From Candidatus Undinarchaeota archaeon (GTDB taxonomy: Archaea > SpSt-1190 > JASMDC01), in the NCBI GenBank assembly GCA_964519305.1, contig CAZFHY010000010.1:64001-128000 (forward strand): 64,000 nucleotides of DNA, given 5' to 3'. Both the position numbers and the translations under genes were made by a program. The notes beneath the pieces were generated by a model. The model saw only the letters and a list, made by a program, of their open reading frames with translations, searched no databases and was not told the origin of the DNA. Shown here one piece after another: positions 8,165 through 44,310 of the stretch (its first letter is position 1; each line of letters opens with the position of its first letter).

Positions 8165-9234
8165 CAGTCATCACCCTCCTTGGTGACGGCCCCGAACGGT
8201 TCGGGTGCTGTGAGTCTGTCGATGAGCGGGGTGAACCCGTTCATGATGAGGATCGAGAACATCACTCCCTCGGGGAGCCCGCCGAACTGGCGGATCACGG
8301 CCGTAAGGAGGCCGCACCCCATGCCGAACACTATGCGTCCGCGCTGGGTGATGGGGCTGGTCACGTAATCGGTGGCCATGAAGAACGCGCCGAGGATGAG
8401 GCCGCCCGCAAGGACGTGGTAGAGGCCCATGAACATGTGAGCGTTGAACGCCATCATGAGCACGAACACCGTGCCCACATAGGAAAACGGGATGCGCCAG
8501 TCGATGATGTCCTTGTAGAATAGGTAGGCGGCACCCAATAGGAGCGCTGCCACCGAGGTCTCGCCGAGCACACCGCCAACGTTCCCCCAGAACGCGTCGG
8601 CGAAGGGCGGGAGGGGTCCTGCCGTGATGAACGGTTCGTGCGAGAAGTACGTTGTAAGGGGGCTTGCCTGCGTCACTGCGTCCGAGGACGCTAAGCGGGC
8701 CGCGGTCTTGAGGTGCGACAACGGTGTCGCCATGGTCACGGCATCGACGCCCACGGGCATCCGGGCCGCCATGAGCACGGGCCAGGAGGCCACGAGGAAC
8801 GCACGACCCGTGAGCGCTGGATTGAATATATTATAGCCCAGCCCGCCGAAGGCGAACTTCGCGACGATGATGGCGAAGGCACTGCCGATCGCGGCCATCC
8901 ACAGCGGGACACCGGAGGAGAGGGTGAGGGCGAGCAGGAGGCCTGTGAGCACTGCTGAACCATCGTTCACGGTGACGGGCTTGCAGAACCACTTCTGGAG
9001 CGCGGCCTCGGTGGCCACGCACGCGACGATGCAAGTAAGGATGACAAGGAGCGCGTCAGCACCGAAGAAGTACACACCGGCAGCGGCGGCCGGTACGAGG
9101 GCCAGTACGACGTCCCACATTATTGAACGGACGGTGTCGGGATTGCGCGCGTGGGGGCTCGTGGACAGGATGTACGGTTCTTCTACCTTCTTCTCGGCCT
9201 TCTTCTCAGTCTTCTTCTCGTCTGCCATCTTCAT
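8164..9234 (-). CDS. rnfD: Rnf complex subunit D
   Basis: SPH, FGGLGYNIFNPAL, DAVTMATPL, GAFFMATDYVTSP; true start probably ATG 9234 (overlapping the rnfC stop) or 9228, not 9768. Confidence 0.93.
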   Translation of the reverse strand: MKMADEKKTEKKAEKKVEEPYILSTSPHARNPDTVRSIMWDVVLALVPAAAAGVYFFGADALLVILTCIVACVATEAALQKWFCKPVTVNDGSAVLTGLLLALTLSSGVPLWMAAIGSAFAIIVAKFAFGGLGYNIFNPALTGRAFLVASWPVLMAARMPVGVDAVTMATPLSHLKTAARLASSDAVTQASPLTTYFSHEPFITAGPLPPFADAFWGNVGGVLGETSVAALLLGAAYLFYKDIIDWRIPFSYVGTVFVLMMAFNAHMFMGLYHVLAGGLILGAFFMATDYVTSPITQRGRIVFGMGCGLLTAVIRQFGGLPEGVMFSILIMNGFTPLIDRLTAPEPFGAVTKEGDD

Positions 9235-10550
9235 CCCCCCTTGCATGTCTTGGTGAACATGTTCTTTGCATGCTTGATCCAGTGCACCAGCGGGATGCGC
9301 GAGGGGCACGAGAAAGCGCACGAACCGCACTCGAAGCAGTCCATTGCATGCGCGTCCGCGGCCTCCTGGAACCGGTCCTTGCGCGCCAGTCGGGCGATGA
9401 GGCTCGGCATAAGGTACATGGGGCATGCGTCGACGCACCGGGCGCACTTGATGCAGGGACGTTCTGGTGAATCGTCGATGTCGGTCTCGATCTGGACGAG
9501 AACACCAGAGGAACCCTTGATGATAGGTATGTCGGTAGTGGTCTGGGCGATGCCCATCATGGGTCCGCCGCTGATGAGCTTCCTGATCGGACCTTTGGCG
9601 CCACCGCAGAGTTCGATGAGCTCTGCTGCCGAGGCACCGATGCGCACCACGATGTTCTTGGGCGTTCCGACAGCCCCGGTCACGGTGACCGCTCGCTCCA
9701 CCAATGGCTTCCCATCGTGGACCGCTTCGTGGATGGCCTTGCATGTGCCCACATTGGACACGACGCATCCCACGTCCATGGGGAGGCCACCGGTCGGTAC
9801 CTTTCGGCCGCTGGCGGCATAGATTAGCATCTTCTCGGCACCCTGGGGATACTTGACATCCATGGGCACGAGTTCGAAACCTGAGTATTCCTTCCGCTCG
9901 AGGAGCTCGGAGAACGCTTCGAGCGCGTCAGGCTTGTTATTCTCGATGCATACGTAGGCCTTATCGGCACCAACGGCGCGCCTGACGATATCGAATCCGG
10001 AGAGCACCTTCTCAACCATCTCGAGCATAAGGCAATGGTCGCAGGTGAGGAACGGTTCGCACTCAGCCCCGTTCAGGAACACCGCGTCGATGGGCTTGTC
10101 CTTTGGCGGGGACAGCTTCACGTGCGTTGGGAAGGCCGCACCTCCCAGACCGACGATTCCGGCGTTCTGGATGATGGACCTGAGCTCCTCGACGGTGAGC
10201 TTCCCGGTCTCCTCCTTGGAGCGTGTCTTAAGCTCCACCCATGTGTCCTCCCCATCGCCCTCGATGACGATTGCCGCGCTCCTTCCCTTGGCAGGATGGG
10301 GGTGATTCGCGATCTCCTTTACCGTACCGCTGATAGTAGCATGGATGGGTACGCTCACGAACCCTCCGGCCTCGGCGATAACCTGACCTACCTTGACTGT
10401 ATCGCCCTTTTCGACGATGGCTTTTGCCGGAGCACCGATGTGCTGGGAGAGCGGGAGCACCACCTGTGCGGGCAGAGGTGCTGTCTCGGCCGGCTTGGAG
10501 GCAGACAGTTTATTGTACCGGGGGTGAACACCGCCGATGAAAGTGGCCAT
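9231..10550 (-). CDS. rnfC: Rnf complex subunit C
   Basis: FIGGVHP, QHIGAP, GLGGAAFPTHVK, NGAECEP, two CxxCxxCxxxCP motifs; start ATG 10550 fits the TATA at about 10575-10583. Confidence 0.95.
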   Translation of the reverse strand: MATFIGGVHPRYNKLSASKPAETAPLPAQVVLPLSQHIGAPAKAIVEKGDTVKVGQVIAEAGGFVSVPIHATISGTVKEIANHPHPAKGRSAAIVIEGDGEDTWVELKTRSKEETGKLTVEELRSIIQNAGIVGLGGAAFPTHVKLSPPKDKPIDAVFLNGAECEPFLTCDHCLMLEMVEKVLSGFDIVRRAVGADKAYVCIENNKPDALEAFSELLERKEYSGFELVPMDVKYPQGAEKMLIYAASGRKVPTGGLPMDVGCVVSNVGTCKAIHEAVHDGKPLVERAVTVTGAVGTPKNIVVRIGASAAELIELCGGAKGPIRKLISGGPMMGIAQTTTDIPIIKGSSGVLVQIETDIDDSPERPCIKCARCVDACPMYLMPSLIARLARKDRFQEAADAHAMDCFECGSCAFSCPSRIPLVHWIKHAKNMFTKTCKGG

Positions 10551-10638
10551 TGCGAGGTTCACAATGATAAGTTGTTATAAAAAGTTACTTTTCTCCCAAG
10601 CACTTCCCGTCGGAGCGGGAACGAAGGAGTGTCTTGTC

Positions 10639-11625
10639 ATGGACCGCAAAGGAATGGTTGTAGCGCTCGTCCTGTCGGTCCTGCTGCTCCATGCCGGTTG
10701 CCAGCAGCCCCCCACCGAGATCGTGCGCAACGAGTCGCTCATGGGAACCATCGTGACCATCAAGGTGGTCCACACCGATGGTCAGGCGGCCAACGCCTCC
10801 ATCGACAAGGCCTTCGCCGAGATGCGGCGGATCGAAGCGCTGCTCACGAACACGGCAACCGATAGCGAGGTGTCCCGCCTTAATACGCAGGGGGAAGTTA
10901 AGCCAGCCAGCCCTGAGCTAATCCAGGTCTTGCGTCTCTCCGTTGAGGCCGGTGAGCTCTCGGGCGGTGCCTTCGACGTGACCGTCCAGCCGCTCCTCGA
11001 CCTCTACACCCACAGCTTCCGTGACCTCAAGCGCCCTCCCACCGGGGAAGAGATCAACACCACCCTCGAGGATGTCGACTACCGGAAGATCGAGGTCCAT
11101 GACGGATGGGCCGCTATTCCCACCAACATGTCGATCACGCTGGGCGGCATCGCGAAAGGATACATCATCGACGTCGCATTCCGTGTGCTCCAGGCCGACG
11201 GTATCGAGAACATCCTCGTCAACGCCGGAGGCGACATCCGGGCTCGGGGCAGCAACGCGCAGAGGCTACCATGGACGCTCGCCCTCCAGAACCCCCGAGA
11301 GGCCACCGATTACATCACGCGCATCCATGCGTCCGATGTTGCAGTGGCAACGAGCGGGGATTACGAGCGGTACTACGATGCTGAGAAGAAGTTCCACCAC
11401 ATCGTGAACCCCACGACCGGCTATTCCGCCCTCGGCCTCATCTCCGTGACCGTCATCGCCGACGAGGCGGTTCGCGCCGACTCCCTGGCAACGTCCGTTT
11501 TCGTGATGGGTAAGGACAAGGGGCTCACCCTCATCGATTCGCTGGAAGGTGTCGAAGCACTGGTCATCACCGAGGAGCGCGATGTGTTCCGCTCGAGCGG
11601 GTTCGCTTCCCACGAGCTGCCGTGA
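10639..11625 (+). CDS. apbE: FAD:protein FMN transferase (ApbE), lipoprotein
   Basis: LHAG-C lipobox, MGT, GAFDVTV, LGGIAKGY, NAGGD, ATSGDYER, HHIVNP; divergent from the rnf operon. Confidence 0.92.
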   Translation: MDRKGMVVALVLSVLLLHAGCQQPPTEIVRNESLMGTIVTIKVVHTDGQAANASIDKAFAEMRRIEALLTNTATDSEVSRLNTQGEVKPASPELIQVLRLSVEAGELSGGAFDVTVQPLLDLYTHSFRDLKRPPTGEEINTTLEDVDYRKIEVHDGWAAIPTNMSITLGGIAKGYIIDVAFRVLQADGIENILVNAGGDIRARGSNAQRLPWTLALQNPREATDYITRIHASDVAVATSGDYERYYDAEKKFHHIVNPTTGYSALGLISVTVIADEAVRADSLATSVFVMGKDKGLTLIDSLEGVEALVITEERDVFRSSGFASHELP

Positions 11626-14957: not shown

Positions 14958-16658
14958 TTACTCGTCGTCCCAGAAGGTCTCGAGCTCGTCCGTTTTGTTG
15001 GTGACAACCCACTCGTTCGCCGAGACCTCTTCGAGGTGGTACCCGTTCTTGCCGAACCGGGATACCTCCACCTTGTCCTGGCCGTCATCCAGCTTCCAGA
15101 GCTCTTTCTCTCCCATGGCCTTGATGCTCTTGACCACGGGGATGAAGTCCTTGATGCGGCGCTTGTGGGTTAGGTCGACGGTCTCCTCTTCGGAGCCGTT
15201 GTGTTTGATGTACAGATCACCATCGTTGAAGGCGACGGAGTAGTGGTTGTCGTCCTCCCTGACGATCTTACCCTGTTCACCCTTGAACGACACTTCCCAA
15301 CCGGAGTCGAATATGTACCGGTCACCATCATGGATGAAGGCAGTGCCCTCGATGGTGGTCTTGACCTCGGGCTTCTCGTTGTAGAGCGAGAAGAGGAAGT
15401 TGGAACCCACCCAGAGGGCGGCGCCGGCGGCGGCCACAGGCACGCTTGAGACGGGCCAGGCCTTGGTGGCGGCCACAGTGCCCGAATAGGTACCAAGATA
15501 GATGCCGCTGCCGATGGACGACTCTACGCCCATGATCTGCCAGAAGTTCTCCGAGTAGTCGTCGTGCTCATGCTCCTTCTTGTTGATGAGCTGGTCGTGG
15601 ATGGCGATGTTGGCCTTGCCGCTCATGACACCGGAGATAGCGCTGGCCACGGTTGCCGCGCCGTATATACCGATGAACGCATAGCCGGGGTTCTCTCCGA
15701 AGCGCTTGAGGATGTCAGGGTGGAGGGCGAAGTAGCTGGCGCCGGTGACGGTGCCTAGTCCGGCCGTGTAGAGGTTGACCTTCTTTAGCGCCTCCATGGG
15801 CTTTTCGGAGTTGACGGCGTTGTCGACAACACTCCCCAGTACGCTCTCTCCGAGGATACTGAGCGCGGGGCTGCCGATGTTACCGATCGAGGTGATTGTG
15901 CTGGCGATACCGTAGGCGGCGCCCTGCTCCCACAGCTTGGGCGTGATGACGCCCAAGAGCATGGCAGCACCGACGTTCCCCATCAGGTCACCGACCTTCA
16001 GGACGGCGTACTCGGGATCCTCCTTGAACAGTCGGTAGAACACCTTGAACTTGTCCATGAAGGACTTCTCATCCATCTGGTACATCTCAAGGGAGAGGTC
16101 GTCAGGGATGCCAAAGAAGCTCTTGAAGTCCTCGTTGAAACCGAACTCCTCGAACTCCACGGTCTCTTTGAGGTTGAAGCCGTTCTCCTTGAGGTACTCC
16201 TTGAGGCCAGGATCAGCATCATCGGGGACCGGCAGTTTCTTGGTGCCGATCAGCGAGCCGAAGAACTTACCTTCGCCCCGTTCGGTGATGACCTCGGTGC
16301 GGTATGCCATGGCCGGGTGGAAGGCAGGGTCCTTGACGTCGTACGCCGTGAAGACAGCGTCCTTGCCGGCGGCCGCAGCGGCACGGTAGGCGTCCACATG
16401 GATGCCCTCCTCGTCGGTGTGGTACACCACGGAGAACCGCGCGCCATCGTACCCGGCGTTCACCAGATCGATGTACTGCTCCTCAATCCCGAAGTTGGCC
16501 TTCGCGAACTCGATATTGTTCGGGTTCAGTTGGAACTCGTCGTACTGCGTTCCCGCTACGAAGAGCGGGTTCGCATCGAGCTTGCGAGTAAAGATCTCAG
16601 AGGCAGTGTTGTTCTCCTCATGAAAATCCTCTTCGGAGAGGACTGCTGCATCATACAT
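14958..16658 (-). CDS. Unknown protein: soluble N-domain, ~6-TM MFS-half-like core, soluble C-domain
   Basis: Start re-placed at ATG 16658 (MYDAAV) from the TTTTTTAAA box at about 16683-16691; hydrophobic block about 15380-16010 containing GSVVDN. Confidence 0.65.
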   Translation of the reverse strand: MYDAAVLSEEDFHEENNTASEIFTRKLDANPLFVAGTQYDEFQLNPNNIEFAKANFGIEEQYIDLVNAGYDGARFSVVYHTDEEGIHVDAYRAAAAAGKDAVFTAYDVKDPAFHPAMAYRTEVITERGEGKFFGSLIGTKKLPVPDDADPGLKEYLKENGFNLKETVEFEEFGFNEDFKSFFGIPDDLSLEMYQMDEKSFMDKFKVFYRLFKEDPEYAVLKVGDLMGNVGAAMLLGVITPKLWEQGAAYGIASTITSIGNIGSPALSILGESVLGSVVDNAVNSEKPMEALKKVNLYTAGLGTVTGASYFALHPDILKRFGENPGYAFIGIYGAATVASAISGVMSGKANIAIHDQLINKKEHEHDDYSENFWQIMGVESSIGSGIYLGTYSGTVAATKAWPVSSVPVAAAGAALWVGSNFLFSLYNEKPEVKTTIEGTAFIHDGDRYIFDSGWEVSFKGEQGKIVREDDNHYSVAFNDGDLYIKHNGSEEETVDLTHKRRIKDFIPVVKSIKAMGEKELWKLDDGQDKVEVSRFGKNGYHLEEVSANEWVVTNKTDELETFWDDE

Positions 16659-16856
16659 GAAGGCCACGGGCACCATCGACGGTTTAAAAAAGGTTTTCCT
16701 ACGCGAACCGGAAAACTCGTGTGTCACTACCGCAGAGACACACCACAAATCGCGAAAAGGAAAGGCATTATCACCCGGAATAGGGTGGTTCGCGAATGTC
16801 CGGCCAGAACCGGAATAAGGTGTCACCCGCGAGTAGGAACAAAAGGGAGGGGATAT

Positions 16857-19319
16857 CTAGGCGGTCGCCTCAGCGCCCTCAGGCGCTCCCTCGCTCGACG
16901 TCTCATCCTCTTTCTTCGTGATCTGGAAGTGGAAGAGAGACCTCGTCGACTGCCAGCGGATCCCGCTCTGCATCCCCTGGTACATGTTGAACGCCTCGGT
17001 CTGGTACTCGATGAACGGGTCCTTCTGAGCATAGGCCCTAAGGTGTACACCGCGCTTCATCTCATCCATACCCAGGAGGTGGTCCTTCCACGACATGTCA
17101 GCAGAGTGCAGAAGGACCTGTCGCTCCACCTGTCGGATGACATCCGTCCCTATCTCGGCCTCGCGTTCGTGGTAGCGTCGCATGGCCTCGTTCGTGAGGT
17201 TCTCGGTCAGCTCGTCAGCGTTCTTGACCGAGGCCACGTTGAGGTCGGCCACGTCGATGCCGAAGAGCGCCTGACAGTTATACGCGAACTGCTTCTGAAG
17301 GAACTCGTTCTCCCACTGGTGGGGCTTGGGGCCCTCGGCGGCGAACGATTCCACGACCTCCTCTGCCGTCCGCTCGATGACGTTGTACACGTCCTGCTGC
17401 AGGTCAGGCCGCTCGAGGATGACGTTGCGGTCCTCGTAGAAGATCTCCCGCTGCGTGTTCATGACCTCGTCGTACTTCAGCAGGTTCTTGCGCATCTCGA
17501 AGTGCATGCCCTCGACCTTGACTTGGGCTTGTCGGACGACCTTGTCGATGAGCTTGCCCGACAGCGGCTCGTCCTTGTGGGCGCCTGAGAAGTACTTCTC
17601 CATGTTCTCCGGTCCGTAGAACCGTAGAAGTTCGTCCTCAGCGGACAGGTAGAACCGGCAGGAACCAGGATCTCCCTGGCGACCCTCGCGTCCCAGGAGC
17701 TGGTCGTCGATGCGACGCGAGTCGTGGCGCTCGGTGCCGATGACATGGAGACCTCCGATGTCGGCCACGCCTTCTCCGAGCTTGATGTCGGTACCGCGAC
17801 CGGCCATGTTAGTGGCGACGGTCACTGCACCCTTCTGCCCGGCCCGGCCAATTATGTCGGCCTCCTGCTTATGGTGTTTGGCGTGGAGCACCTGGTGGTC
17901 GATGCCGCGGGCGATGAGCATATCGCTCAGGTGCTCGGACACATCGATGGAACGGGTGCCAACGAGCACGGGGCGGCCTGCCTCGTGCTGGGCCACGATG
18001 TCGTCAACGATCGCGTCGTACTTCTCCTCGGCTGTGCGGTACACCAGGTCGGGCTGGATGTCCCGCTGCATGGGCTCGTTCGTCGGTATCTGGGAGACGT
18101 CCATGCCATAGAGGGAGATGAACTCGCCCTCCTCGGTCTTTGCGGTCCCGGTCATGCCCGAGACGCGGTCGTACATCCGGAAGAAGTTGGGGAACGTGAT
18201 GGAAGCGTAGGTCTGGGAAGGCTCGCGGACCTTCATTTCGGTCTTCCCGGTGGCTAGAAGGTCGTTGTTGGCCTCTTTCGCCTCCAGGGCCTCGTGCAGC
18301 CCGGCCTCGTACCGCCTGCCGTGCATGAGGCGACCGGTGAACTCGTCGACGATTAGCAGCTCACCGTCCGAGACTACGTAGTTCTTGTCCTTTGTGAAGA
18401 GCGAGTGGGCGGCGATGCACTGGCGTGCCGAGTGGTAGAGATGCATGGTCCGCTCGTCCGTGGGCGAGTCCACCCCGAGGGCCTTGGCCAGCTTGTCATC
18501 CCCGCGCTCCGTGAAGAATACGATATGGTCCTTCTCGTGCACCTCATAGTCGCGCCCGGGTTCGAAGTCGCGGACGATACGGTCCATGATGAGGTACTCG
18601 CGGGCAGAGGTGCCCGTGCGTCCAGAGATGATGAGAGGAGTTCTCCCCTCGTCGATGAGGATGGAGTCGACCTCGTCGATGATAGCATAATGCATGCCCC
18701 GCATGACCCGGTCCTCGGGCCGGCGGACCATGTTGTCTTTGAGATGGTCGAATCCGAACTCGTTGTTCGTCCCGTAGGTGATGTCCGACTGGTATGCCGC
18801 CCTGCGGTCCTCGGGGGACTGGTCGTGCTGGATGGTACCGACGGACATCCCCATGAACTCGTAGACCGGAGCCATCTCCTCGGCGTCGCGACCGGCCAGA
18901 TAATCGTTGGCGGTGATGACGTGGACGCCCTTTCCTTCCAATGCATGGAGGTACCCGGAGAGGGTCGCCACCAGTGTCTTGCCCTCACCGGTCTGCATCT
19001 CGGCGATGCGGCCCTCGTGGAGGATCACGCCGCCCTTGACCTGGACGTCGTAATGGCGCATCCCGGTCACGCGGCTGCTCGCCTCGCGCACAGCAGCATA
19101 GGCCTCGGGCATGAGGTCGTCCAGGCTCTCGCCCTCCGCGTATCTATCCCGGAACTCGTTGGTCTTGCCTGCGAGCTCCTCGTCCGAGAGTGCCGCCATC
19201 TCGTCAGCGTAACCGTTGACCTCATCGACGATGTCGTCCAGACGCCGCTGCTCGCGATGGCTGTAGGAGAAGAAGGACTTCACGCCGTCGTAGAATCGAT
19301 CGAGCAACCCGTCCTCCAT
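16857..19319 (-). CDS. secA: Preprotein translocase ATPase SecA (no C-terminal Zn-binding tail)
   Basis: EMQTGEGKT, YLAGRDA, IIDEVDSILIDEGRTPLIISG, GMTGTA, ATNMAGRGTDI, RRIDDQL.GR.GRQGDPG, AYAQKDP. Confidence 0.95.
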   Translation of the reverse strand: MEDGLLDRFYDGVKSFFSYSHREQRRLDDIVDEVNGYADEMAALSDEELAGKTNEFRDRYAEGESLDDLMPEAYAAVREASSRVTGMRHYDVQVKGGVILHEGRIAEMQTGEGKTLVATLSGYLHALEGKGVHVITANDYLAGRDAEEMAPVYEFMGMSVGTIQHDQSPEDRRAAYQSDITYGTNNEFGFDHLKDNMVRRPEDRVMRGMHYAIIDEVDSILIDEGRTPLIISGRTGTSAREYLIMDRIVRDFEPGRDYEVHEKDHIVFFTERGDDKLAKALGVDSPTDERTMHLYHSARQCIAAHSLFTKDKNYVVSDGELLIVDEFTGRLMHGRRYEAGLHEALEAKEANNDLLATGKTEMKVREPSQTYASITFPNFFRMYDRVSGMTGTAKTEEGEFISLYGMDVSQIPTNEPMQRDIQPDLVYRTAEEKYDAIVDDIVAQHEAGRPVLVGTRSIDVSEHLSDMLIARGIDHQVLHAKHHKQEADIIGRAGQKGAVTVATNMAGRGTDIKLGEGVADIGGLHVIGTERHDSRRIDDQLLGREGRQGDPGSCRFYLSAEDELLRFYGPENMEKYFSGAHKDEPLSGKLIDKVVRQAQVKVEGMHFEMRKNLLKYDEVMNTQREIFYEDRNVILERPDLQQDVYNVIERTAEEVVESFAAEGPKPHQWENEFLQKQFAYNCQALFGIDVADLNVASVKNADELTENLTNEAMRRYHEREAEIGTDVIRQVERQVLLHSADMSWKDHLLGMDEMKRGVHLRAYAQKDPFIEYQTEAFNMYQGMQSGIRWQSTRSLFHFQITKKEDETSSEGAPEGAEATA

Positions 19320-19345
19320 CAAGTTGGCCTCGGCCCCGTACGGCC

Positions 19346-19360
19346 TTAATAAAGGTTTCT
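19346..19360 (-). promoter_or_regulatory. BRE/TATA promoter of secA
   Basis: Minus strand AGAAACC-TTTATTAA, 27 nt upstream of ATG 19319. Confidence 0.6.
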
Positions 19361-19394
19361 CTGCGGGGGACTGGAAAACGGCATACGTAGGTCC

Positions 19395-20018
19395 TCACCC
19401 CCCCAGAATCGGCTGGACGTCCGACACCTTATCGAACGCGTACCCACCATCCTCGGGGCCCCAGACCTGTTCGTCTCGCTCGTTGTAACCCCGGTCCCAG
19501 GCGTACATCCCGCTCTCGTCGATGACAAGCTCGGTCGTGGCGTACACGGCCCCGCCATAGCTGTTCTCGCACTCCTTGCCCCGGGTACCACCCACGAAGG
19601 CGTCGTTCTCCCGGTGGAGGTAGACGACGTTCCCGCGGAAGCCCTCCAGGTCATCGGTTGTGAGGTCGCGGGCCAGCCTACCGTCCTCCCATGTGCCGAC
19701 GAGCTCCTCGCCGTCCCGGATGCGGTAGATGTGGCTCTCGAGGGTACCGTCATCACCGGAAGTCAGCCGGTACGCCCGCTGACGGTAGGGGGAGCCCTCC
19801 ATTCCGGCCATGGCCTGCTCGACGTAGACCCAGTGGTCACTGTCGCTACCACCCTCTACCTCGATGGGGAGCATCTTGAGGCGGATGTCGTAGTAGCTGG
19901 GGTCCTTTTCGGACTGTCGCTGGCTGGAGAACTCGCCCGTCATCCACGCATGGAGCGTGTCGAGGTCGTTCCTCCCTTCGTTCACTTCAGGCACCATGGT
20001 CCCGATATTCCGTGCCAC
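19395..20018 (-). CDS. CpcT/CpeT lyase-family (lipocalin-like) protein
   Basis: WMTGEFSSQRQ, YVEQA, PYRQR.Y and WDRG...EQVWG signatures. Confidence 0.8.
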   Translation of the reverse strand: MARNIGTMVPEVNEGRNDLDTLHAWMTGEFSSQRQSEKDPSYYDIRLKMLPIEVEGGSDSDHWVYVEQAMAGMEGSPYRQRAYRLTSGDDGTLESHIYRIRDGEELVGTWEDGRLARDLTTDDLEGFRGNVVYLHRENDAFVGGTRGKECENSYGGAVYATTELVIDESGMYAWDRGYNERDEQVWGPEDGGYAFDKVSDVQPILGG

Positions 20019-20022
20019 TCGA

Positions 20023-20403
20023 TCAGAACCTTATCCTGAAGAGCGGGACCGCATGCGGGGCCCGGGGGTCGCTGTCCCACCTGTAGACTTCCAGGTCCAC
20101 GCCGGGCGACTCGCCCCTAGTGATATCGAGGTCCACTCCGATGCCCTCTTGTGGCATGTTGTCCATGTCGATCGTCTCGAGGTCGCTGGCATACACCGGG
20201 GCCTCGGCCTTCTCGACATAGGTGTTCGTCTCTTGCGTCATTACGCTCCCGGCCATGGCACCGACGCCCACCAGGAGACCGGCCGCAAGAGCACCTCCGG
20301 CCAGACCGTAGGTGGAAAGGTCGTCTGCCGCAGTATATCCGTCGGCCATCACCGCCGAGGCGGTTCCGGTCGTCTCAAGTTCTTCCATGTACATCATGAT
20401 CAC
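20023..20403 (-). CDS. Small membrane-anchored protein with an ELET-type acidic leader
   Basis: MYMEELETTG..ADGY..ADDL followed by a Gly/Ala TM; GGAGTGA RBS-like sequence. Confidence 0.7.
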   Translation of the reverse strand: MIMMYMEELETTGTASAVMADGYTAADDLSTYGLAGGALAAGLLVGVGAMAGSVMTQETNTYVEKAEAPVYASDLETIDMDNMPQEGIGVDLDITRGESPGVDLEVYRWDSDPRAPHAVPLFRIRF

Positions 20404-20440
20404 TCCTTTCAGTTCTTACAGTATGATATCGTTCGCGGCC

Positions 20441-20980
20441 TCATCGGATACGGAAGTCGAATCCGGGGATACGGATCCGGATGTCAACATCGCTCTGCTC
20501 GTAGGAGGGGTGGCTGTCAGGGGCCAAAGGGTCCGAACCGAACCCGAGCTCGTCCATGTCGGTGTAGCCGTCGTGATCGGTGTCGAACCAGTTCGGGTCC
20601 GTACCGAGCTCCATGACCTCAACACGGTCACTGATGCCGTCAGCGTCGGAGTCCCATTCCAACGTGCTCGTCCTGTACACACTGAGCTCCTTCGAGTCAG
20701 CGAGGCCGTCGTTGTCCGCGTCGGGTACGCCCCGGGCGTAGTCCATGCTGTCGATGAGCCCATCGCCGTCAGTGTCGGCGCTGAAGGGGTTGTTCCCGGT
20801 GACGATATCCTTGGCGGTCGAGTAGCCATCCTTGTCGAAGTCTACCGCGAGCACACCCGTGAGGGCGCCCACGGCTCCCAGGAGGGCGAGCCCCCGACCG
20901 TCCATATCGTCCGTGCTGCTGTATGCGTCGGCGGCCGATGCGCCGTAGCTTCCGTTCGTCTCAAGCTCGTATGCGATCAT
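20441..20980 (-). CDS. ELET-leader protein with Ca-binding TSP3-like (DxDxDG) repeats
   Basis: Start at ATG 20980 (MIAYELETNG); DTDGDGL, DADNDGL, DSDADGI and DTDHDGY repeats with GxDP. Confidence 0.75.
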   Translation of the reverse strand: MIAYELETNGSYGASAADAYSSTDDMDGRGLALLGAVGALTGVLAVDFDKDGYSTAKDIVTGNNPFSADTDGDGLIDSMDYARGVPDADNDGLADSKELSVYRTSTLEWDSDADGISDRVEVMELGTDPNWFDTDHDGYTDMDELGFGSDPLAPDSHPSYEQSDVDIRIRIPGFDFRIR

Positions 20981-21017
20981 GTCCGGCCCTGCCCCTTGTC
21001 CCCTTTTTATACCTTTC

Positions 21018-21049
21018 TTTGGTATACCTAATATATTGGGACTGCCTAA
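21018..21049. promoter_or_regulatory. Tandem DtxR-like operators
   Basis: TTTGG-TATA-CCTAA (21018-21031) and TTGGG-ACTG-CCTAA (21036-21049), 18 bp period. Confidence 0.6.
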
Positions 21050-21130
21050 TATATAGGGCTCTGAGCACAGCTTACCGACATACACAGTAATGTTAGGGGA
21101 TACGAATACATGCAGAGCCGATGAACGGCA

Positions 21131-22102
21131 TCATGCGTCTTCGGAGAGGGCCCAGCACCGGTCGAAGTACTCGATGAGCACCGGGATCAGAACGTTGCCT
21201 GTGGAGCTATGCCACCAGGGAGCGTCGTCGCCAAGCTCCACATCGATGAACGGCAGGCCCTCGGCCTTGAAGGCCAGATCCCGAACACGCCCTTCGGCCA
21301 TCGAATCGCCTGAGATCACCAGCTCACCATCCCCCCATGAGACAGATGCCCGCTTGACGGGGAAGTCGATCTCAATGAAGGGGAGCACCGGACGCTTCTC
21401 CGCGATGTAATAGGTCGCCGAGGCGGGCTCGTGGATTTCGTTGTCGTATTTCACGTCGAATACCTCGGTCACCCTGCCCTTCGGCCCGCGATACAGGAAC
21501 GACATGGACATGTGCGAGTCGCCATCCCGATCCCTGAATAAGTGATGGAACTCGTGGACCGTGAAGGAACCCTTGGTATAGCTGGTCGCCCGTAGGGGGA
21601 CCGCTGGGTGATTCACCAGGTTCTGGACTAGGGGTACACCCAGAGCAGGATGGCGCTCAAGGCCTCGTGCCACTTTCTCCGGATCACGGAGCCGCCAGCG
21701 CGCATAGGATGGCTGGGCGGCGTGCCGCAGCTTGAATGTGACGTCGTAACCATATATCCCATCGGTCTCGTCGTCCACGGCGACCAGATAGTGATGATAG
21801 GGCGATGGGAACACGGTGCGCTCCTCGACCAGATATGCGTTCTCGATGCCCGCGGCCTTGGCGAGCGAGAGCCAGACCAGGGATTGCTCAAGGCAGTTCC
21901 CCTCGCCTTGGGCAACGCACTCTTCCACTGAGCGGAGCCGGTACGGATCATCTGTCTTCAGCAGCTCCTCGTAGCCGTATTGGACGTTCTCCAAGACCCA
22001 GTCGTAGATGATATCTGCCTTCTCCCCATCGTCCATGTCCTGTGTAACAAGGGATTCGATGATTGGTTTGACTGACTCGGGATCCAGGTACTGTCCGTCC
22101 AA
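21131..22102 (-). CDS. Transglutaminase-like (Cys-His-Asp) protein
   Basis: IYDWV, GEGNCLEQS, HHY and YDVT motifs. Confidence 0.75.
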   Translation of the reverse strand: MDGQYLDPESVKPIIESLVTQDMDDGEKADIIYDWVLENVQYGYEELLKTDDPYRLRSVEECVAQGEGNCLEQSLVWLSLAKAAGIENAYLVEERTVFPSPYHHYLVAVDDETDGIYGYDVTFKLRHAAQPSYARWRLRDPEKVARGLERHPALGVPLVQNLVNHPAVPLRATSYTKGSFTVHEFHHLFRDRDGDSHMSMSFLYRGPKGRVTEVFDVKYDNEIHEPASATYYIAEKRPVLPFIEIDFPVKRASVSWGDGELVISGDSMAEGRVRDLAFKAEGLPFIDVELGDDAPWWHSSTGNVLIPVLIEYFDRCWALSEDA

Positions 22103-22131
22103 GGCGGTCTTAAAAATTTAGGCGTGCTTAA
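22100..22131. promoter_or_regulatory. Tandem DtxR-like operators overlapping the start of the transglutaminase-like gene
   Basis: CAAGG-CGGT-CTTAA (22100-22113) and TTAGG-CGTG-CTTAA (22118-22131), 18 bp period. Confidence 0.55.
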
Positions 22132-22174
22132 TAATATTCCCTTTGGACACGTCGACTGTGTTCTGGTGCTCAAG

Positions 22175-22210
22175 GAAAAGTTTAAGTATGCCTAACTTAG
22201 GTGGCCCTAA
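22175..22210 (+). promoter_or_regulatory. BRE/TATA with tandem DtxR-like operators
   Basis: GAAAAG-TTTAAGTA promoter; TTAAG-TATG-CCTAA (22182-22195) and perfect TTAGG-TGGC-CCTAA (22197-22210). Confidence 0.7.
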
Positions 22211-22259
22211 CTCAAACCGCAAGGAACGCGGACCGGATGATTATCGAAGGTGATCTGAA

Positions 22260-22715
22260 ATGTTCGAAATGGAACTCGAGTCGGAAGGGTACGGTGCTAC
22301 CAACACCACGCAGGCCTATGGACAGGTGGATGACCTGAACCTCAGGGGTGCCGCCGTGGGTGCAGCTATCGGGGGTGCCGTCGGATTTGGCATGGCAGGC
22401 CTCGCCGGTTACGGCCTGGCAAACCACATCAGTGATCACTATCTTCAGGACGTCGGCCCTCTGCCGCAAGTGCTCCTTGAGGTGGACGCTACCATCGCCG
22501 GCCTCTACGTGCTCGGCGTGCCATTCGCTATCGGTGGCGCGCTGACCGCTGGTGCAGCCGGTGCTACCTCCACCCTATTCAGGGGCGAGGAGGAGGCACC
22601 TAACGATGGTGCGGCCTACGACTGGAACGGTGAGCAGGACCTCGACCGTGTCCCCCTCCGGCGCCAGGTACGGTACACGTATCCTCGCAGAGACGCGAAC
22701 GAACTGGACTGGTAA
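22260..22715 (+). CDS. Glycine-zipper membrane protein with an ELES-type acidic leader
   Basis: MFEMELESEG..QAY..DDL, then GAAVGAAIGGAVGFG and a second TM; AAGGTGA RBS. Confidence 0.72.
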   Translation: MFEMELESEGYGATNTTQAYGQVDDLNLRGAAVGAAIGGAVGFGMAGLAGYGLANHISDHYLQDVGPLPQVLLEVDATIAGLYVLGVPFAIGGALTAGAAGATSTLFRGEEEAPNDGAAYDWNGEQDLDRVPLRRQVRYTYPRRDANELDW

Positions 22716-22725
22716 CGGGATACCT

Positions 22726-24279
22726 GTGTACGAGCCCGAAGGGGACGGACAGTTGGAGGAGAGGCCTGAGGACGGAGAGAATCCGGTCGGGCAAGTCCTT
22801 ACCTACCAGAACCCTATCGACTATACGGTCACACATGACCTATTATCGCAGGATCCCGCATACTGTATGATGACGTTCGAGATGTATCGGCCCCTGTCGG
22901 ACGCGCTGGGCTTCCCGATCGCCAGCGATATGACACTCAGTGCCACGTACCATCCTGATCCATATGATCCGCCCCCGGGACAATCCCTTACTTTCGACCG
23001 CGTCACCCTCGCTAAGAAGCCTGGGGCCGCATGGCTCACCCCTGTGGACCTGGACGGTGACGGGTACGACGAACTGGTGCTCTCCACCCTCTTCGAAGGG
23101 CTCGCAGTGGCCATCCCCCCTATCGGGAACGGAGGGGCGTACATACTCTCAAGAGATGGCGGAGCATCGACGGACGACTCCATCGGCCAGTGGTCGGTCG
23201 ATCCGCTCTTCACGCCCAAGGACGGGATCGGCTTCCCGAACAGTCCGGTCCTCATGGATGTGGACAACGACGGTGTGGAGGACATAGTGGTCCCGTGCGG
23301 TTTCCTCCTAAAACCAACCGGTCGGATCGTGTGGATGAAGGGCGAACCGGTCGACGGTCAGCTCACCTACGGCCCACCACAGGACATCCCCATCCCGGAC
23401 AGCTCCCGCTGGTACCATGCCATCGTACCGGCGGACCTCACCGGCAATGGCCGTATGGACTTCGTCACCACCAACCACGACGGAACGCTCCTATCCCCGG
23501 GCACCAGCAAGGTGGAATGGTTCGAGAACGTGGGCGGTCCTGGTGAGGCCAGGTTCGTCCACCACCATATCGCGGATAGGGGCGGATCCCACCTTGCCCT
23601 CTACGATATGACCGGTAATGGTAAACAGGACATCATCCTCCCCCAATACTTCGATGGCCCGTCGCTCATATGGCTCGAACAGCCCGATACTCCCGACAGT
23701 GACTGGAAGGAGCACGTCATCAACGACACCACCGGTAGAGGATTCGGGATCGAGGTCGTCGATATCGATGGTGACGGTAGACCGGAACTTGTCTACGGCA
23801 ACCACAACCACCAAGGTGCAGCCGATCCCGCTCACCGGACCATGGGTGTGTACTGGTTCGATATCCCCGCCCCCTCCGAGGTCCGCGACCTCAATAACTG
23901 GGACGACCATATGCATGTAGTCCATGAGGGTTTCCATGTCCGTGCCCGGGATCCCAATGCCAACGCCGCTCCAGGGGTCGTGCACGTGGGGGACGTCACC
24001 GGGAACGGTAGGATGGACATCACCGTGTCAGGTGACGGGGACGACGGGCTTTACATATTCACACAGCAGGACGACGGCACTTTCGAGAAGGTTGTTGTCG
24101 ATCGTCAGCCCATGTCCGGCGACCATCACCTGATGGACGTCAACGGGGATGGACGGATGGACGTGGTATGGACCGTGTTCGGGGAGGTCGGCCTCCGCGG
24201 CCCGCGTTCAATGGTGTACGCCTACATCCAGAAAGAGAACGGACAAGCAGACAATGAAAAGAGTAGTGACAAGGAGTGA
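22726..24279 (+). CDS. FG-GAP/VCBS repeat beta-propeller protein
   Basis: Seven DxxGxGxxD-type repeats (DLDGDGYDE, DVDNDGVED, DLTGNGRMD, DMTGNGKQD, DIDGDGRPE, DVTGNGRMD, DVNGDGRMD); probable GTG start 22726 (MYEPEGDG). Confidence 0.85.
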   Translation: MYEPEGDGQLEERPEDGENPVGQVLTYQNPIDYTVTHDLLSQDPAYCMMTFEMYRPLSDALGFPIASDMTLSATYHPDPYDPPPGQSLTFDRVTLAKKPGAAWLTPVDLDGDGYDELVLSTLFEGLAVAIPPIGNGGAYILSRDGGASTDDSIGQWSVDPLFTPKDGIGFPNSPVLMDVDNDGVEDIVVPCGFLLKPTGRIVWMKGEPVDGQLTYGPPQDIPIPDSSRWYHAIVPADLTGNGRMDFVTTNHDGTLLSPGTSKVEWFENVGGPGEARFVHHHIADRGGSHLALYDMTGNGKQDIILPQYFDGPSLIWLEQPDTPDSDWKEHVINDTTGRGFGIEVVDIDGDGRPELVYGNHNHQGAADPAHRTMGVYWFDIPAPSEVRDLNNWDDHMHVVHEGFHVRARDPNANAAPGVVHVGDVTGNGRMDITVSGDGDDGLYIFTQQDDGTFEKVVVDRQPMSGDHHLMDVNGDGRMDVVWTVFGEVGLRGPRSMVYAYIQKENGQADNEKSSDKE

Positions 24280-24282
24280 TAC

Positions 24283-25044
24283 ATGATGGAGACCGAAGAC
24301 ATGCTCACTAATGATACGAAAAAGACCGGGATTGACACACAAACGGTGTTGGGGGACCCTCGGGCGGCCAGGTTCGTGGAGGACCTTGTGCTGTACTCGA
24401 AGCACACGTTAGATCCATCATTGCTCGAGTTGGATGGAGGTTCGCGATCAGCAGAGGGCCTCCCGCCGGTCAACGAGAGCAACATCGTAGAGCTCATCGA
24501 GTTCTACCGCATGGACCCAGAGCGGGTTAACGGTTTCTTCGAATCCCTGTACGAGGCCCATGAGGGCGATCCGGATGCCCGGGGTTACCTCCACGCTGCG
24601 TACGGCATCGTGGGCGGGAAGGCCGGGCAGGTCGACCGGATAGAGATGCGGTACAAGGAAGGGGTTGAACAGCTGCTCCGTCAGTATGACAGCGAGCTCA
24701 CCGAGATCATCGACTGGATGGACAACATGGACAGCAGGAGCCCCTATCTCGGCCTGCTGACCGGTGTTAGCGCGAGCACTGTGTTCGGGTACATCACCGA
24801 TCATGGAGCGGGAGTGACCGCTGCCGTTGCCGCAGGTCTGGCCCTTGGAGGAACGCTCCTGGGATACATGATCCCCCACGCTTGGGGCAACCACCGCATA
24901 GCTGTCGGCTGGAAGCGCATCACGTCAGAGACCGAGCGAATCGACGGACAGTTCTGCGAGCGAAGAGAAGAGCTCTACGAGCGTGCCGTAGAGAACATCG
25001 GTCAACTCCGGGGCGAGTACGACCTCGAAGAGATTATCTGCTGA
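24283..25044 (+). CDS. Hypothetical protein with a hydrophobic hairpin flanked by helical/coiled segments
   Basis: GGAGTGA RBS; two adjacent hydrophobic segments around residues 155-200. Confidence 0.7.
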   Translation: MMETEDMLTNDTKKTGIDTQTVLGDPRAARFVEDLVLYSKHTLDPSLLELDGGSRSAEGLPPVNESNIVELIEFYRMDPERVNGFFESLYEAHEGDPDARGYLHAAYGIVGGKAGQVDRIEMRYKEGVEQLLRQYDSELTEIIDWMDNMDSRSPYLGLLTGVSASTVFGYITDHGAGVTAAVAAGLALGGTLLGYMIPHAWGNHRIAVGWKRITSETERIDGQFCERREELYERAVENIGQLRGEYDLEEIIC

Positions 25045-25050
25045 GCCGGC

Positions 25051-25854
25051 CTAGATGCCATCCCCTCTCTCGGCCTCCTTCAGCTTCTTGAAGTAGGTCC
25101 AGCTCGTCTCGTTGGGCGTTGTGAAGGTGTCAGGTGCGTGCTCGAACTTCGGCGCCTGTGCGCGCACTTCGTCCTTTATGCGCTGTGGGAGGTCCTCGAA
25201 GCCACATTCCAGCTTGTGGCCCCGACAGTGGTACACCAGCTGTCCTGGCCGATCGCCCATGCCCATCCAGGGCAGCCACTGTCCCGTCCGCGTCCAGCTG
25301 AACGTCATGGGTACGCTGTCCAAGTCATCGTTCTCCAGCTCGTCCTTTCGCACGATGAAGTTGAACAGCTCGGCCGACTCGTACATGTCGCTCTGGGCGT
25401 TGTCAGGGTACTCGTCGCGGGTGAGGGGCGAGGGATAGCGGAGGAACATCTCCGCATGCCAGGCGACGTCATCCCCCAGGTCTGTGGTGGGCACCTTGAA
25501 GTAGGTCTCTCCAAACTCCATGTTCACGGGATCGTTCCACACATGGACCACGTCCTCCCGCCGGCCGGTGTAGGGATTGCTCCACGTATCAAGGAGCTCA
25601 TCGGTGTGCGGATCGTAGTAGAAGGACACCTCGCGGGTGAGCAGCTGGTAGACGCCGTTCACCTTCTCGACGCGGGCGATGTTGTACCCCTCGAAGTGGA
25701 AGAGACGATCGGCTGTCATGTCAGGACGCTTGGCATAGACCTCACCCGACCAGTAGGTGACGACCTCGCTGCCGTCGAGAGATGCCCGTGTGCGCAGGAA
25801 GTCGTGGAGGTTCCCTGCTGAACCCTCAAGGTCATAGTGGTCCATCGCGTCCAT
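25051..25854 (-). CDS. DUF1838 family protein
   Basis: YWSGEVYA, LF.FEG.N, RE..YYDP.T.E, WSNPYTG, HVWNDPVN, WLPWM.MG. Confidence 0.8.
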   Translation of the reverse strand: MDAMDHYDLEGSAGNLHDFLRTRASLDGSEVVTYWSGEVYAKRPDMTADRLFHFEGYNIARVEKVNGVYQLLTREVSFYYDPHTDELLDTWSNPYTGRREDVVHVWNDPVNMEFGETYFKVPTTDLGDDVAWHAEMFLRYPSPLTRDEYPDNAQSDMYESAELFNFIVRKDELENDDLDSVPMTFSWTRTGQWLPWMGMGDRPGQLVYHCRGHKLECGFEDLPQRIKDEVRAQAPKFEHAPDTFTTPNETSWTYFKKLKEAERGDGI

Positions 25855-25855
25855 C

Positions 25856-26671
25856 TCAGAGCAGTTCCTCGAGCGTTCGCGGCATGTCGTTCAGGAGGTC
25901 GTCCATACTGATGCTCTCCCAGGTCACCCGCTCGGCCACGTAGCCGTAACCGATGCCGTAAGCGTGGTACGACGCGTTCAGGGCCGTTGCGACCGCATCC
26001 ATATCGATCACACCACTGGCCAGCGTCTCGCGTGCGGCCATAAGCTCTCGCACCGCAGGACGTCGATCCCGCTCGCCCCATGCCAGACGCTCCTCGAAGG
26101 CAGTTTCGGCGAACTCGGCCCCTGCGGGTAGCTCCGTGGCGCGCGCCCGGAACATGTTGGTCGCCATGTACTCTGCCTGCCCCTCAAGTGCGGCGAGGAC
26201 AGGTACAGCATCGATGAGGGAGCGGATGTAGTCGCCATGGGTCTCGTCCCGTTGCCGGGCCAGCTCCTTCTGGAGCCCCGCGCCGATGAGCGCGCCGTGG
26301 TTCGCCTGGTAGGCATGGACGAGCTCGTGAGCGAGCACGTACACCAGCTCGCCATCCTGCTCAGGATCAGTGAGGTCCGGTGTTACGACACGGTCCGATA
26401 TGAGCACCCGGTGGTTCAGGTCGTCGTACATACCTTTGTTGCCATGGTAATGTACCGCGGCGTCATGGATGGTCGCCTCATCGGCCTCTACACCCAGGTG
26501 ATCGCAGATATCACGGGCCAATCCTTCATACACGGCAACATCGGCGATGACCACTTCCGGTAGCGGGCCGAAAGCGATCCCGAACTCATCCTCGTAAGCG
26601 GTGACTATGTCATCCATAAGCGAATCGTAGGCATCCACGACAGGACGCCCGTCCCTTTCAATGTCGTACAT
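25856..26671 (-). CDS. Zincin-like metalloprotease
   Basis: VLAHELVHAYQ followed by the EGQAEY third-ligand motif. Confidence 0.72.
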   Translation of the reverse strand: MYDIERDGRPVVDAYDSLMDDIVTAYEDEFGIAFGPLPEVVIADVAVYEGLARDICDHLGVEADEATIHDAAVHYHGNKGMYDDLNHRVLISDRVVTPDLTDPEQDGELVYVLAHELVHAYQANHGALIGAGLQKELARQRDETHGDYIRSLIDAVPVLAALEGQAEYMATNMFRARATELPAGAEFAETAFEERLAWGERDRRPAVRELMAARETLASGVIDMDAVATALNASYHAYGIGYGYVAERVTWESISMDDLLNDMPRTLEELL

Positions 26672-26684
26672 GTCGCAGGTAAAT

Positions 26685-26698
26685 TTAGGCTTACCTTA
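26685..26698. promoter_or_regulatory. DtxR-like operator overlapping a TATA box
   Basis: TTAGG-CTTA-CCTTA 14-27 nt upstream of ATG 26671. Confidence 0.6.
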
Positions 26699-26740
26699 TA
26701 TTCGTTACTATTCTGTACAAGAATCGCTCCGGAAGATCCC

Positions 26741-31401: not shown

Positions 31402-31500
31402 CCGCCCATCACCACCGCGCATTCCTTTATAAAACGAAGGAGAGAGAACGCACGTCGGCCCCCCCTCTCCGTGTCCCCCTTCATCGTTAACCATTCATCA

Positions 31501-35457: not shown

Positions 35458-35460
35458 CGA

Positions 35461-41103: not shown

Positions 41104-41128
41104 TTTCACCACGCTTCCAGTACACTAT

Positions 41129-42813: not shown

Positions 42814-42979
42814 GGTTGTCACCTTCAGTTCTTGTTCACGTTCAGCAAGTTCTCTACGAACCGTGCTGCCTCTGAAACGGCAGCGATACCGCTGTAGAGA
42901 ATACCTAGCCCGATAATCTTGGAGCGTCGCCCCGTCAACTTTGGACAATACATTTCTACGCGCTTCATGGCCGTCACCT

Positions 42980-44092: not shown

Positions 44093-44122
44093 TAGGTCTG
44101 CCTAAGCTTAAGGGTCACCTAA
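44092..44122. promoter_or_regulatory. Tandem DtxR-like operators
   Basis: Perfect TTAGG-TCTG-CCTAA (44092-44105) and TAAGG-GTCA-CCTAA (44109-44122), spanning from the start codon to the TATA. Confidence 0.72.
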
Positions 44123-44310
44123 TAAATGTTTCCTTTCTCCCAAGAGAAGCTACCATTAAAGCTAACAGGTGACCAAATTGTGGCCTGGGGCGGCGGCCGG
44201 GCATGGCATGCCCAGGTGACGTGGTGGCCACCGGCCCCAGACCTATGGTGTCCCCCATGGGGACAATCCCCTATCCTGTTCTCCTTTCTACTGTTCCTGA
44301 CTGTAGCGAT

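Follow-up and report, generated by a model that had tools for sequence, protein, structure and literature searches.

The stretch of DNA analysed here (the window) comprises 64,000 nucleotides of contig CAZFHY010000010.1 (positions 64,001 to 128,000) from assembly GCA_964519305.1 of a Candidatus Undinarchaeota archaeon. On its minus strand lies a complete gene for the ATPase SecA, and a second secA copy was found on another contig of the same genome; both are treated below together with the archaeal Sec components of this organism. The genome is referred to as G000, the contig holding the window as C10, and the genome of a sister species of the same genus as G001.

The secA gene and its product

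According to the list of open reading frames and the translation, the secA open reading frame covers positions 16857..19322 on the minus strand and starts with TTG at 19322, directly followed by ATG at 19319. The gene and the motifs and domains of its product are located as follows:

16857..19319, minus strand: secA coding sequence, 820 amino acids from ATG 19319, stop codon at 16857-16859; the in-frame TTG 19322 is an alternative start
18975..18998, minus strand: Walker A motif MQTGEGKT, residues 108-115; G111, E112, G113, K114 and T115 are invariant in 42 SecAs
18666..18677, minus strand: Walker B or DEAD-like motif DEVD, residues 215-218; D215, E216 and D218 are invariant in 42 SecAs
18282..18605, minus strand: preprotein cross-linking domain (PPXD), residues 239-346 (PF01043, 1.3e-31)
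18237..18269, minus strand: 11-residue insert NNDLLATGKTE, residues 351-361, located between the last PPXD helix and the strand that leads back to the first nucleotide-binding domain (NBD1)
17664..17705, minus strand: motif VI region DQLLGREGRQGDPG, residues 539-552, including GREGRQGDPG (543-552); the Glu between the two Arg is unusual
16923..17567, minus strand: SecA_SW, helical scaffold and wing, residues 585-799 (PF07516); the protein ends 21 residues further on
17016..17042, minus strand: tip of the two-helix finger, LRAYAQKDP, residues 760-768, with the aromatic Tyr763 (from the alignment)

In Pfam searches, the protein matched SecA_DEAD (PF07517) at residues 15-400 (6.9e-120) with SecA_PP_bind (PF01043) nested within it at 239-346, followed in order by P-loop_SecA (PF21090) and SecA_SW at 585-799 (3.3e-57). 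It consists of NBD1 with the inserted PPXD, NBD2, the helical scaffold, the wing and the two-helix finger, which is the architecture expected for the family. Both NCBIfam equivalog models of SecA were passed (NF009538, 1000.7 bits, cut-off 814; TIGR00963, 932.5 bits, cut-off 800), and all five SecA2 models remained below their curated cut-offs (e.g. TIGR03714, 764.6 bits, cut-off 930; TIGR04221, 579.4, cut-off 725; TIGR04397, 854.6, cut-off 1085; NF012136, 647.7, cut-off 1100). The columns of the superfamily-2 ATPase motifs (Walker A, DEVD, TGT, motif V and both arginines of motif VI) were invariant in an alignment of 42 SecAs; the TGT motif reads GMTGTAKTE (residues 388-396) and motif V TNMAGRGTDI (residues 503-512).

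In a preliminary description of this DNA, the gene had been taken for an intact bacterial-type secA with all ATPase motifs, with GREGRQGDPG as motif VI and without the C-terminal Zn-binding tail. Pfam, NCBIfam and the alignment agree with this. The SEC-C tail (PF02810) gave no match in the window SecA, and the alignment stops before the CxCxSGxKxKxCC block. This tail is common in the SecA family without being universal; the nearest bacterial hits possess one, and by a rough pattern it was present in 127 of 354 compared sequences.

Between the two arginines of motif VI, 339 pattern-matching sequences showed Ser (246), Ala (83), Cys (4), Thr (2) or Glu (4), and the four rows with Glu represent three distinct archaeal orthologues, one protein having been entered twice. 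The Glu is kept in all seven orthologue variants, and the second copy of G000 carries Ala; in the sequences compared, it is specific to orthologues of the window type. Also unusual is a Leu in the motif VI region, where bacteria mostly carry Arg. At the finger tip, Tyr occurred in 218 of 261 matched sequences; the window SecA has Tyr and the second copy Phe.

The AlphaFold2 model of the window SecA, calculated with 42 sequences, reached a mean predicted local distance difference test value of 86.5 and a predicted template modelling score of 0.79, and it resembled solved SecA structures with template modelling scores (TM-scores) of 0.79-0.85. Its best structural match was 6itc_A, SecA in a substrate-engaged SecA-SecY complex (TM-score 0.85/0.91). 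In the model, the 11-residue insert contributes to a lengthened helix (341-357) followed by a loop. A signal peptide or other export signal was not found in the window SecA.

Archaeal host and its Sec components

The assembly of G000 has a size of 3.63 Mb in 42 contigs, with a completeness of 99.83% and a contamination of 4.29%. Its small-subunit rRNA scored 1508 bits with the archaeal and 1157 bits with the bacterial model, the large-subunit rRNA is archaeal as well, and one rRNA operon is present. Contig C10 (136 kb, free of N) also encodes MCM, both subunits (A and B) of topoisomerase VI and Trm1. Four TFB genes were detected in the genome, which yielded no match to sigma-70 region 2. The archaeal context assumed in the preliminary description is thus real, as rRNA operon, SecY, MCM, topoisomerase VI and Trm1 attest.

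The only SecY match of the genome is located on contig C25 (29880-31466; L003:1297-2886). This protein of 529 amino acids is of the archaeal type (NF006341, 342.8 bits), and its gene is flanked by those for archaeal uL30 and L34e. As the preliminary description had stated, neither secY nor secE adjoins secA: secY lies outside the window, and SecE (PF00584) gave no match anywhere in the genome, the small model having also missed two of four archaeal control genomes. SecY2 was not found either; the sole SecY scored 21.5 bits on the SecY2 model. A bacterial-type SecYEG channel was not detected in the genome, where the only SecY is archaeal and no SecG lies above the cut-off. SecDF is present, and Omp85, LspA and a signal peptidase of the PF10502 type yielded no match in the genome. 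Since the genome holds only an archaeal SecY, the channel in this cell can only be the resident archaeal (Sec61-type) SecY complex. With two secA copies, one secY and an archaeal host, the gene is not the sole housekeeping secA of a bacterium, which the preliminary description had named as one finding that would overturn it.

G000 represents a large-genome lineage among small-genome archaea: the sister species has a genome of 3.8 Mb, and those of 15 sampled class-mates range from 0.6 to 1.2 Mb. Among named sequences, the SecY of G000 comes closest, at about 50% identity, to entries carrying the label Woesearchaeota or Nanoarchaeota.

A second copy and a single origin of the archaeal SecAs

A second full-length SecA (815-824 amino acids) is encoded on contig C36. 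It is 63% identical to the window copy and passes the SecA cut-offs (NF009538, 977.2 bits; TIGR00963, 920.4 bits). C36 is a short contig of 8 kb bounded by repeats. It shares paralogous genes with contigs C1, C4, C17 and C37, its first 55 nucleotides match the end of C30 exactly, and both C36 and C10 lie within the main cloud of the genome in tetranucleotide composition; C36 belongs to this genome. The identity between the paralogues is 73-75% in the motor domains, 56% in the PPXD and 47% each in scaffold/wing and two-helix finger. This pattern of divergence would fit a division of clients or of partners.

The nearest bacterial SecAs showed 50-53% identity in a search of 5.8 billion proteins, at best 49% among 1.84 billion representatives, and 42-50% in 80 named bacterial genomes. 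In trees calculated with FastTree (92 rows) and with IQ-TREE under LG+G4 (45 rows), the four archaeal SecAs formed one clade with a support of 100, in which the C36 copy is sister to the three orthologues. The stem of this clade amounts to 0.70-0.78 changes per site, the median end branch to 0.33-0.39. The clade attaches near Bacillota and an Eremiobacterota sequence, without support. Regarding the choice between an archaeal clade and a recent bacterial transfer, which the preliminary description had left to a phylogeny, the trees reveal a distinct archaeal clade on a long stem, and a recent transfer does not apply; the placement of the donor is not supported. Extreme halophily was considered as a cause of the long branch and rejected (median isoelectric point of the proteome 5.55, (D+E)/(K+R) 1.29, from crude open reading frames).

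Three further characters mark the clade, namely the 11-residue insert, DQLL instead of the usual NQLR before motif VI, and the loss of the tail. The insert occurs in both paralogues and in the orthologues and is absent from all bacterial SecAs compared, and DQLL was found in the archaeal clade only. The shared insert, DQLL and the missing tail back a single origin of the archaeal SecAs.

Long residence of the gene

G001 (3.8 Mb) contains a syntenic SecA orthologue with 93% identity. The gene order is the same (the gene for a 609-amino-acid protein, secA, the downstream gene), with 89% nucleotide identity; the contig is collinear with the window downstream of secA, and upstream it joins directly to gene 26741-28570. 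Two assemblies which differ in 11% of their nucleotides thus keep secA at the same spot, which shows that the assembly is reproducible. Records of the exact window SecA protein exist for 13 contigs of up to 257,738 bp, and those of the G001 protein for 14 contigs of up to 202,227 bp. Seven distinct orthologue variants (92-100% identity) occur in the protein collection, all with the signature residues. Metagenome locus L134, the only close locus in a metagenome scan, was rejected as an independent witness, being 100% identical to the G001 contig.

Between G000 and G001, secA showed a dN/dS ratio of 0.076 (dS 0.49). By segment, this ratio was 0.026 in the PPXD, 0.007 in IRA1/two-helix finger and 0.065-0.08 in the motor domains. 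Of 173 columns conserved to at least 90% in 39 bacterial SecAs, 149 were unchanged in all three archaeal sequences. The codon usage of secA corresponds to that of the genome (correlation of relative synonymous codon usage 0.94, at the 75th percentile of long genes; GC content at third codon positions 0.845).

The following element lies directly upstream of the gene:

19346..19363, minus strand: archaeal promoter, with a purine-rich stretch CAGAGAAACC (19363-19354) resembling a TFB recognition element (BRE), followed by the TATA box TTTATTAA (19353-19346)

The gap after the TATA box is 23 nucleotides to the TTG and 26 nucleotides to the ATG, and the motif begins 31 nucleotides before the TTG. 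The box named in the preliminary description was therefore found, and its distance of 27 nucleotides was about right. Genome-wide, TTTAWW motifs peak 28-32 nucleotides upstream of candidate ATG or GTG starts (309 in 5 bins; background of about 19 per bin at 36-60 nucleotides), and C10 alone has 12 hits in the peak bins versus about 2.4 expected. Such a peak is a mark of leaderless archaeal transcripts, in which the TATA box is expected about 26 nucleotides ahead of the transcription start. Over the approximately 80 nucleotides upstream of secA, in which the BRE-like stretch and the TATA box lie, G000 and the sister species agree in 95% of positions, and a sigma-70-like site was not found between window positions 14500 and 19600. 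As the description of an archaeal-style promoter had suggested, BRE and TATA box stand at the genome-wide spacing and are conserved in the sister species. From spacing and conservation, it is predicted that secA has its own archaeal leaderless BRE/TATA promoter. The copy on C36 is located behind a TATA-like sequence (TTAAAAAA).

Because of the second copy, the syntenic orthologue with its low dN/dS, the matching codon usage and the conserved promoter, secA is a real archaeal chromosomal gene and neither a contaminant nor a recent passenger.

Genes in the neighbourhood and acidic leaders

Directly downstream of secA, one gene is syntenic in G001:

14958..16658, minus strand: Gly-rich membrane protein of no known family

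The corresponding open reading frame of 622 amino acids (14958-16826) could start with GTG at 16826 or with ATG at 16658 (codon 56), and a TTTAAA begins 30 nucleotides before this ATG. ATG 16658 is the probable start, with a TATA box of the gene's own ahead of it, in which case this gene and secA would be transcribed separately. The protein gave no Pfam match, and an Atlas search was uninformative (all scores ≤ 0.82).

Upstream of secA, about 7.3 kb of the window (19398-26737) with genes for a CpeT-like, a TSP3-repeat, a transglutaminase-like, an FG-GAP and a DUF1838 protein are missing in G001 and in the identical L134; consequently, these genes are not conserved neighbours of secA. The segment represents an insertion or deletion right at the boundary of the secA promoter. 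L134 also lacks the gene at 31501-35457, which encodes a protein of 1318 amino acids.

In G001, secA directly follows a cassette for a giant protein, a protein of 976 and one of 609 amino acids. In G000, this cassette is located at window positions 26741-41112 on the minus strand, and its giant secreted protein comprises 1883 amino acids. At least eight other copies without an adjoining secA exist in G000, with paralogues on C1, C2, C3, C4, C7, C9 and C19. Because the copy on C19 is 61-63% identical, a segmental duplication was considered, in which the second secA would lie beside this copy; the secA was not there and this was rejected. No Pfam family was found for the 976-amino-acid protein. 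The 609-amino-acid protein starts with RARAQISLIGLI, which by eye looks like a pilin-type signal.

Furthermore, six paralogues of clostripain (peptidase C11) are encoded at 41299-53932 on the minus strand, five of them in tandem at 46490-53932. Three start with an acidic stretch of about 20 residues, a Lys and a Gly-rich hydrophobic segment (KQVATYAAAGLGLVATIGGAI-like). A recurring leader, [DE]GY..[ST][DE]DL..[KR] followed by a Gly/Ala-rich hydrophobic stretch, was found in at least nine otherwise different proteins encoded on C3, C9, C10, C12, C14 and C20, including window positions 20441-21085 and 53923-54981, and 36 candidate acidic-leader proteins are distributed over 16 contigs. The acidic leaders mentioned in the preliminary description do therefore exist, on clostripain paralogues and on proteins of several contigs. 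The leaders look like signal anchors with acidic cytoplasmic tails, and the recurring one may be a lineage-specific sorting signal or signal anchor.

At 5471-11625, the window also contains an Rnf/Nqr-type cluster (RnfB-like Fe-S protein, subunit of the RnfD/NqrB family) and an ApbE flavin transferase.

SecA as a probable motor of the archaeal SecY channel

Based on these results, the following course of events is proposed. An ancestor of the genus would have acquired a bacterial secA once. The acquired gene would then have been duplicated, taken on the codon usage of the genome and come under an archaeal leaderless BRE/TATA promoter, and it would have been kept under strong purifying selection since its acquisition. 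SecA would bind unfolded secretory or signal-anchored proteins and push them with ATP through a membrane channel, and this channel would be the resident archaeal (Sec61-type) SecY complex. That a domesticated bacterial secA acts in this manner as an ATP motor on the archaeal SecY is considered probable, albeit with no great confidence. The sequences themselves establish the archaeal host, the intact gene, the single origin, the duplication, the selection and the promoter; the docking of SecA on the archaeal SecY, the ATP-driven translocation and the identity of the client proteins are what we infer here. Indirect support for preprotein translocation is provided by the purifying selection on the PPXD and the two-helix finger.

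Several observations weigh against this reading. SecY binding, ATPase activity and expression of SecA are all predictions. As partners of SecA, neither a bacterial SecG above the cut-off nor a SecB match was found in the genome. In bacteria, the N-terminal helix of SecA binds acidic lipids via basic residues, and according to the alignment this helix is acidic in the window SecA. The assembly of G001 has only one SecA copy, so a second copy may not be general within the genus, and the trees are site-homogeneous models applied to a long branch. The cytosolic loops 6/7 and 8/9 of SecY are ordinary for archaea. At six SecY positions with a conservation of at least 85% elsewhere, G000, G001 and P0272, a relative with 68% identity, carry substitutions. 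Since only two of these, R261K and G446N, fall in the two loops, there is no strong mark of co-adaptation; as an adaptation of SecY to SecA, both are a weak hint at most. Another of the six substitutions is G76S in the otherwise invariant GIGPIVT.

The SecY of G000 possesses an enlarged external loop of about 80 residues (326-405) between transmembrane helices TM7 and TM8, corresponding to a position between residues 308 and 312 of M. jannaschii SecY. This enlarged loop is common to G001 and P0272, and the versions of class-mates are shorter. It was considered as a docking site for SecA and rejected, as it is external and occurs in shorter versions in class-mates. A complex prediction with shortened proteins (SecA 225-806, SecY 215-529) and without controls gave a value of 0.01 for the interface score ipSAE in both runs and speaks neither for nor against binding.

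SecA2-like behaviour of one or both SecA copies is conceivable, with special clients for export, for instance the giant surface proteins or signal-anchored proteases with acidic leaders; a dedicated motor for acidic-leader proteins had been one of the two possibilities in the preliminary description. This would refine the favoured reading and is regarded as unlikely. The two paralogues are most diverged in PPXD, scaffold/wing and two-helix finger, in the sister species secA stands directly after the cassette, and an acidic leader with a Gly-rich hydrophobic stretch behind it is present on the clostripain paralogues and on further proteins. In streptococci, Gly-rich signal cores route substrates to accessory Sec systems. 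However, the window SecA passes the two SecA equivalog models and none of the SecA2 models, no SecY2 was found, at least eight other copies of the cassette do not adjoin a secA, the candidate leader proteins are scattered over the genome, secA has its own promoter, and the genes directly upstream in G000 are absent in the sister species.

It is slightly less likely still that SecA has a role without SecY, for example as a cytosolic chaperone or holdase, as a nucleic-acid- or ribosome-associated ATPase, or as a partner of another membrane machine. This would be in accordance with the acidic N-terminal helix, with SecY loops lacking strong co-adaptation, and with the fact that no evidence of docking on the archaeal SecY was obtained. 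On the other hand, the full SecA architecture is retained, and the most constrained domains are those which serve only preprotein clamping and channel insertion, i.e. the PPXD and the aromatic-tipped finger.

The assumption of a bacterial contaminant in the bin or of a chimeric contig, to which the contamination value (CheckM-type) and the short, repeat-bounded C36 might point, is largely refuted by the archaeal hallmark genes on C10, by the exclusively archaeal SecY and rRNA operon without sigma-70, by the promoter and gene order shared with the sister species, by the exact protein on long contigs of other assemblies, by the connections of C36 to other contigs, and by the distance to the closest bacterial SecAs (49-53% identity).

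A recent functionless horizontal passenger, or a SecA delivered to the translocon of a bacterial host as the preliminary description had considered, is equally improbable: the class-mates do have the genome size of host-dependent archaea, but the genome of 3.6 Mb is 99.8% complete and not that of a reduced symbiont, SecA carries no export signal, the clade stem is long, the codon usage is fully ameliorated, all orthologue variants keep the signature residues, and strong purifying selection in all domains is expected for a protein working in its own cell.

Comparison with known SecA systems

The window SecA, whose model came closest to SecA of Bacillus subtilis (PDB 1m6n, 1tf2 and 3jv2; complexes 6itc and 3dl8; TM-scores 0.79-0.85), is 46% identical to this protein, with which it aligns colinearly over residues 16-797 (762 bits). 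It shares the four-domain architecture, the ATPase motifs and the aromatic finger tip with housekeeping bacterial SecAs. It differs from them in its archaeal host with a Sec61-type SecY, in the BRE/TATA promoter and in that no SecG or SecB was found in the genome, as well as in the missing Zn tail, the 11-residue insert, the sequence DQLLGREGRQG and the acidic N-terminal helix.

SecA2 of Gram-positive bacteria (C. difficile 6sxh; mycobacterial, listerial and streptococcal proteins) is likewise a second paralogue per genome without a C-terminal tail, in some systems accompanied by SecY2 and Asp genes, and atypical signal sequences occur in some neighbours of the archaeal secA as well. The model of the window SecA closely resembles the structure of C. 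difficile SecA2 (TM-score 0.75, 45% identity). Unlike in these systems, the SecA2 models remained below their cut-offs, and neither SecY2 nor Asp genes were found. Both archaeal paralogues derive from one import and are mutually closest relatives; they are therefore orthologues of neither bacterial SecA1 nor SecA2, and neither copy can be called housekeeping.

With the chloroplast protein cpSecA, a case is known in which a SecA passed to another lineage and operates outside bacterial cells. This protein arrived through endosymbiosis together with its own bacterial-type cpSecY/E, whereas in the archaeon only the motor was imported and the channel is archaeal.

Rarity of SecA in Archaea

The occurrence of SecA in Archaea was surveyed with the SecA-specific model SecA_SW at its cut-off, in samples which do not represent a census. 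In a set of 401 archaeal genomes from 268 genera, no genome other than G000 and G001 reached this cut-off, and among 400 genomes of another archaeal phylum three passed, two of them on contigs of at most 2.4 kb. Outside the genus, hits were thus obtained in 3 of 799 other archaeal genomes. The third of these (L179, G628:C263:10153-13767) has a GC content of 28%, shares about 40% identity with bacterial SecAs and has no relation to the clade described here; it is probably foreign DNA in the bin.

A full-text literature search revealed no analysis of an archaeal SecA, and, judged by the search, the word SecA is absent from two papers on Undinarchaeota. The name SecA has already been given to a protein with 90% identity in NCBI records of metagenome-assembled genomes labelled 'Methanopyri archaeon' and 'Candidatus Undinarchaeales archaeon'. 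An excerpt of a 2026 review (FEMS Microbiol Rev; PMC13673990) states that Archaea have no SecA homologue. In an excerpt of Harris and Goldman 2021 (PMC7987157), rare horizontal transfer is given as the explanation for a small number of SecA-like matches among UniProt entries of archaea; within that excerpt, these sporadic hits were not analysed further, in contrast to the present gene, which is archaeal-encoded, duplicated, vertically inherited and under selection.

Significance

An archaeal genus whose only channel is archaeal has domesticated a canonical SecA pair. This finding is real and unusual; according to textbooks, SecA is confined to bacteria and chloroplasts. Function at the archaeal SecY is most likely and the best-supported reading of these sequences, even if unproven. 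Going further, a natural hybrid translocon may be tentatively envisaged, and we hold it to be possible rather than probable: the imported SecA would drive post-translational export via SecYE-beta, and the duplicated motors would split their clients, one of them serving acidic-leader, Gly-rich, signal-anchored exoproteins. If true, this motor would have been remodelled by the insert at the PPXD, the altered motif VI and the lost tail, and Archaea would have their first known Sec motor that is driven by ATP and acts post-translationally, in large-genome archaea that are allied to DPANN groups with small genomes.

To our knowledge, the power source of post-translational export through the archaeal SecY channel is an open question. 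A fixed, duplicated and selected SecA in a cell with only an archaeal channel would be a natural experiment on docking to a Sec61-type channel and on the changes of motor or channel which this docking needs, and the two paralogues are a concrete, expressible pair of proteins for testing it. For a relative of small-genome archaea, the genus itself has unusually large genomes, and it has acquired core machinery of bacteria.

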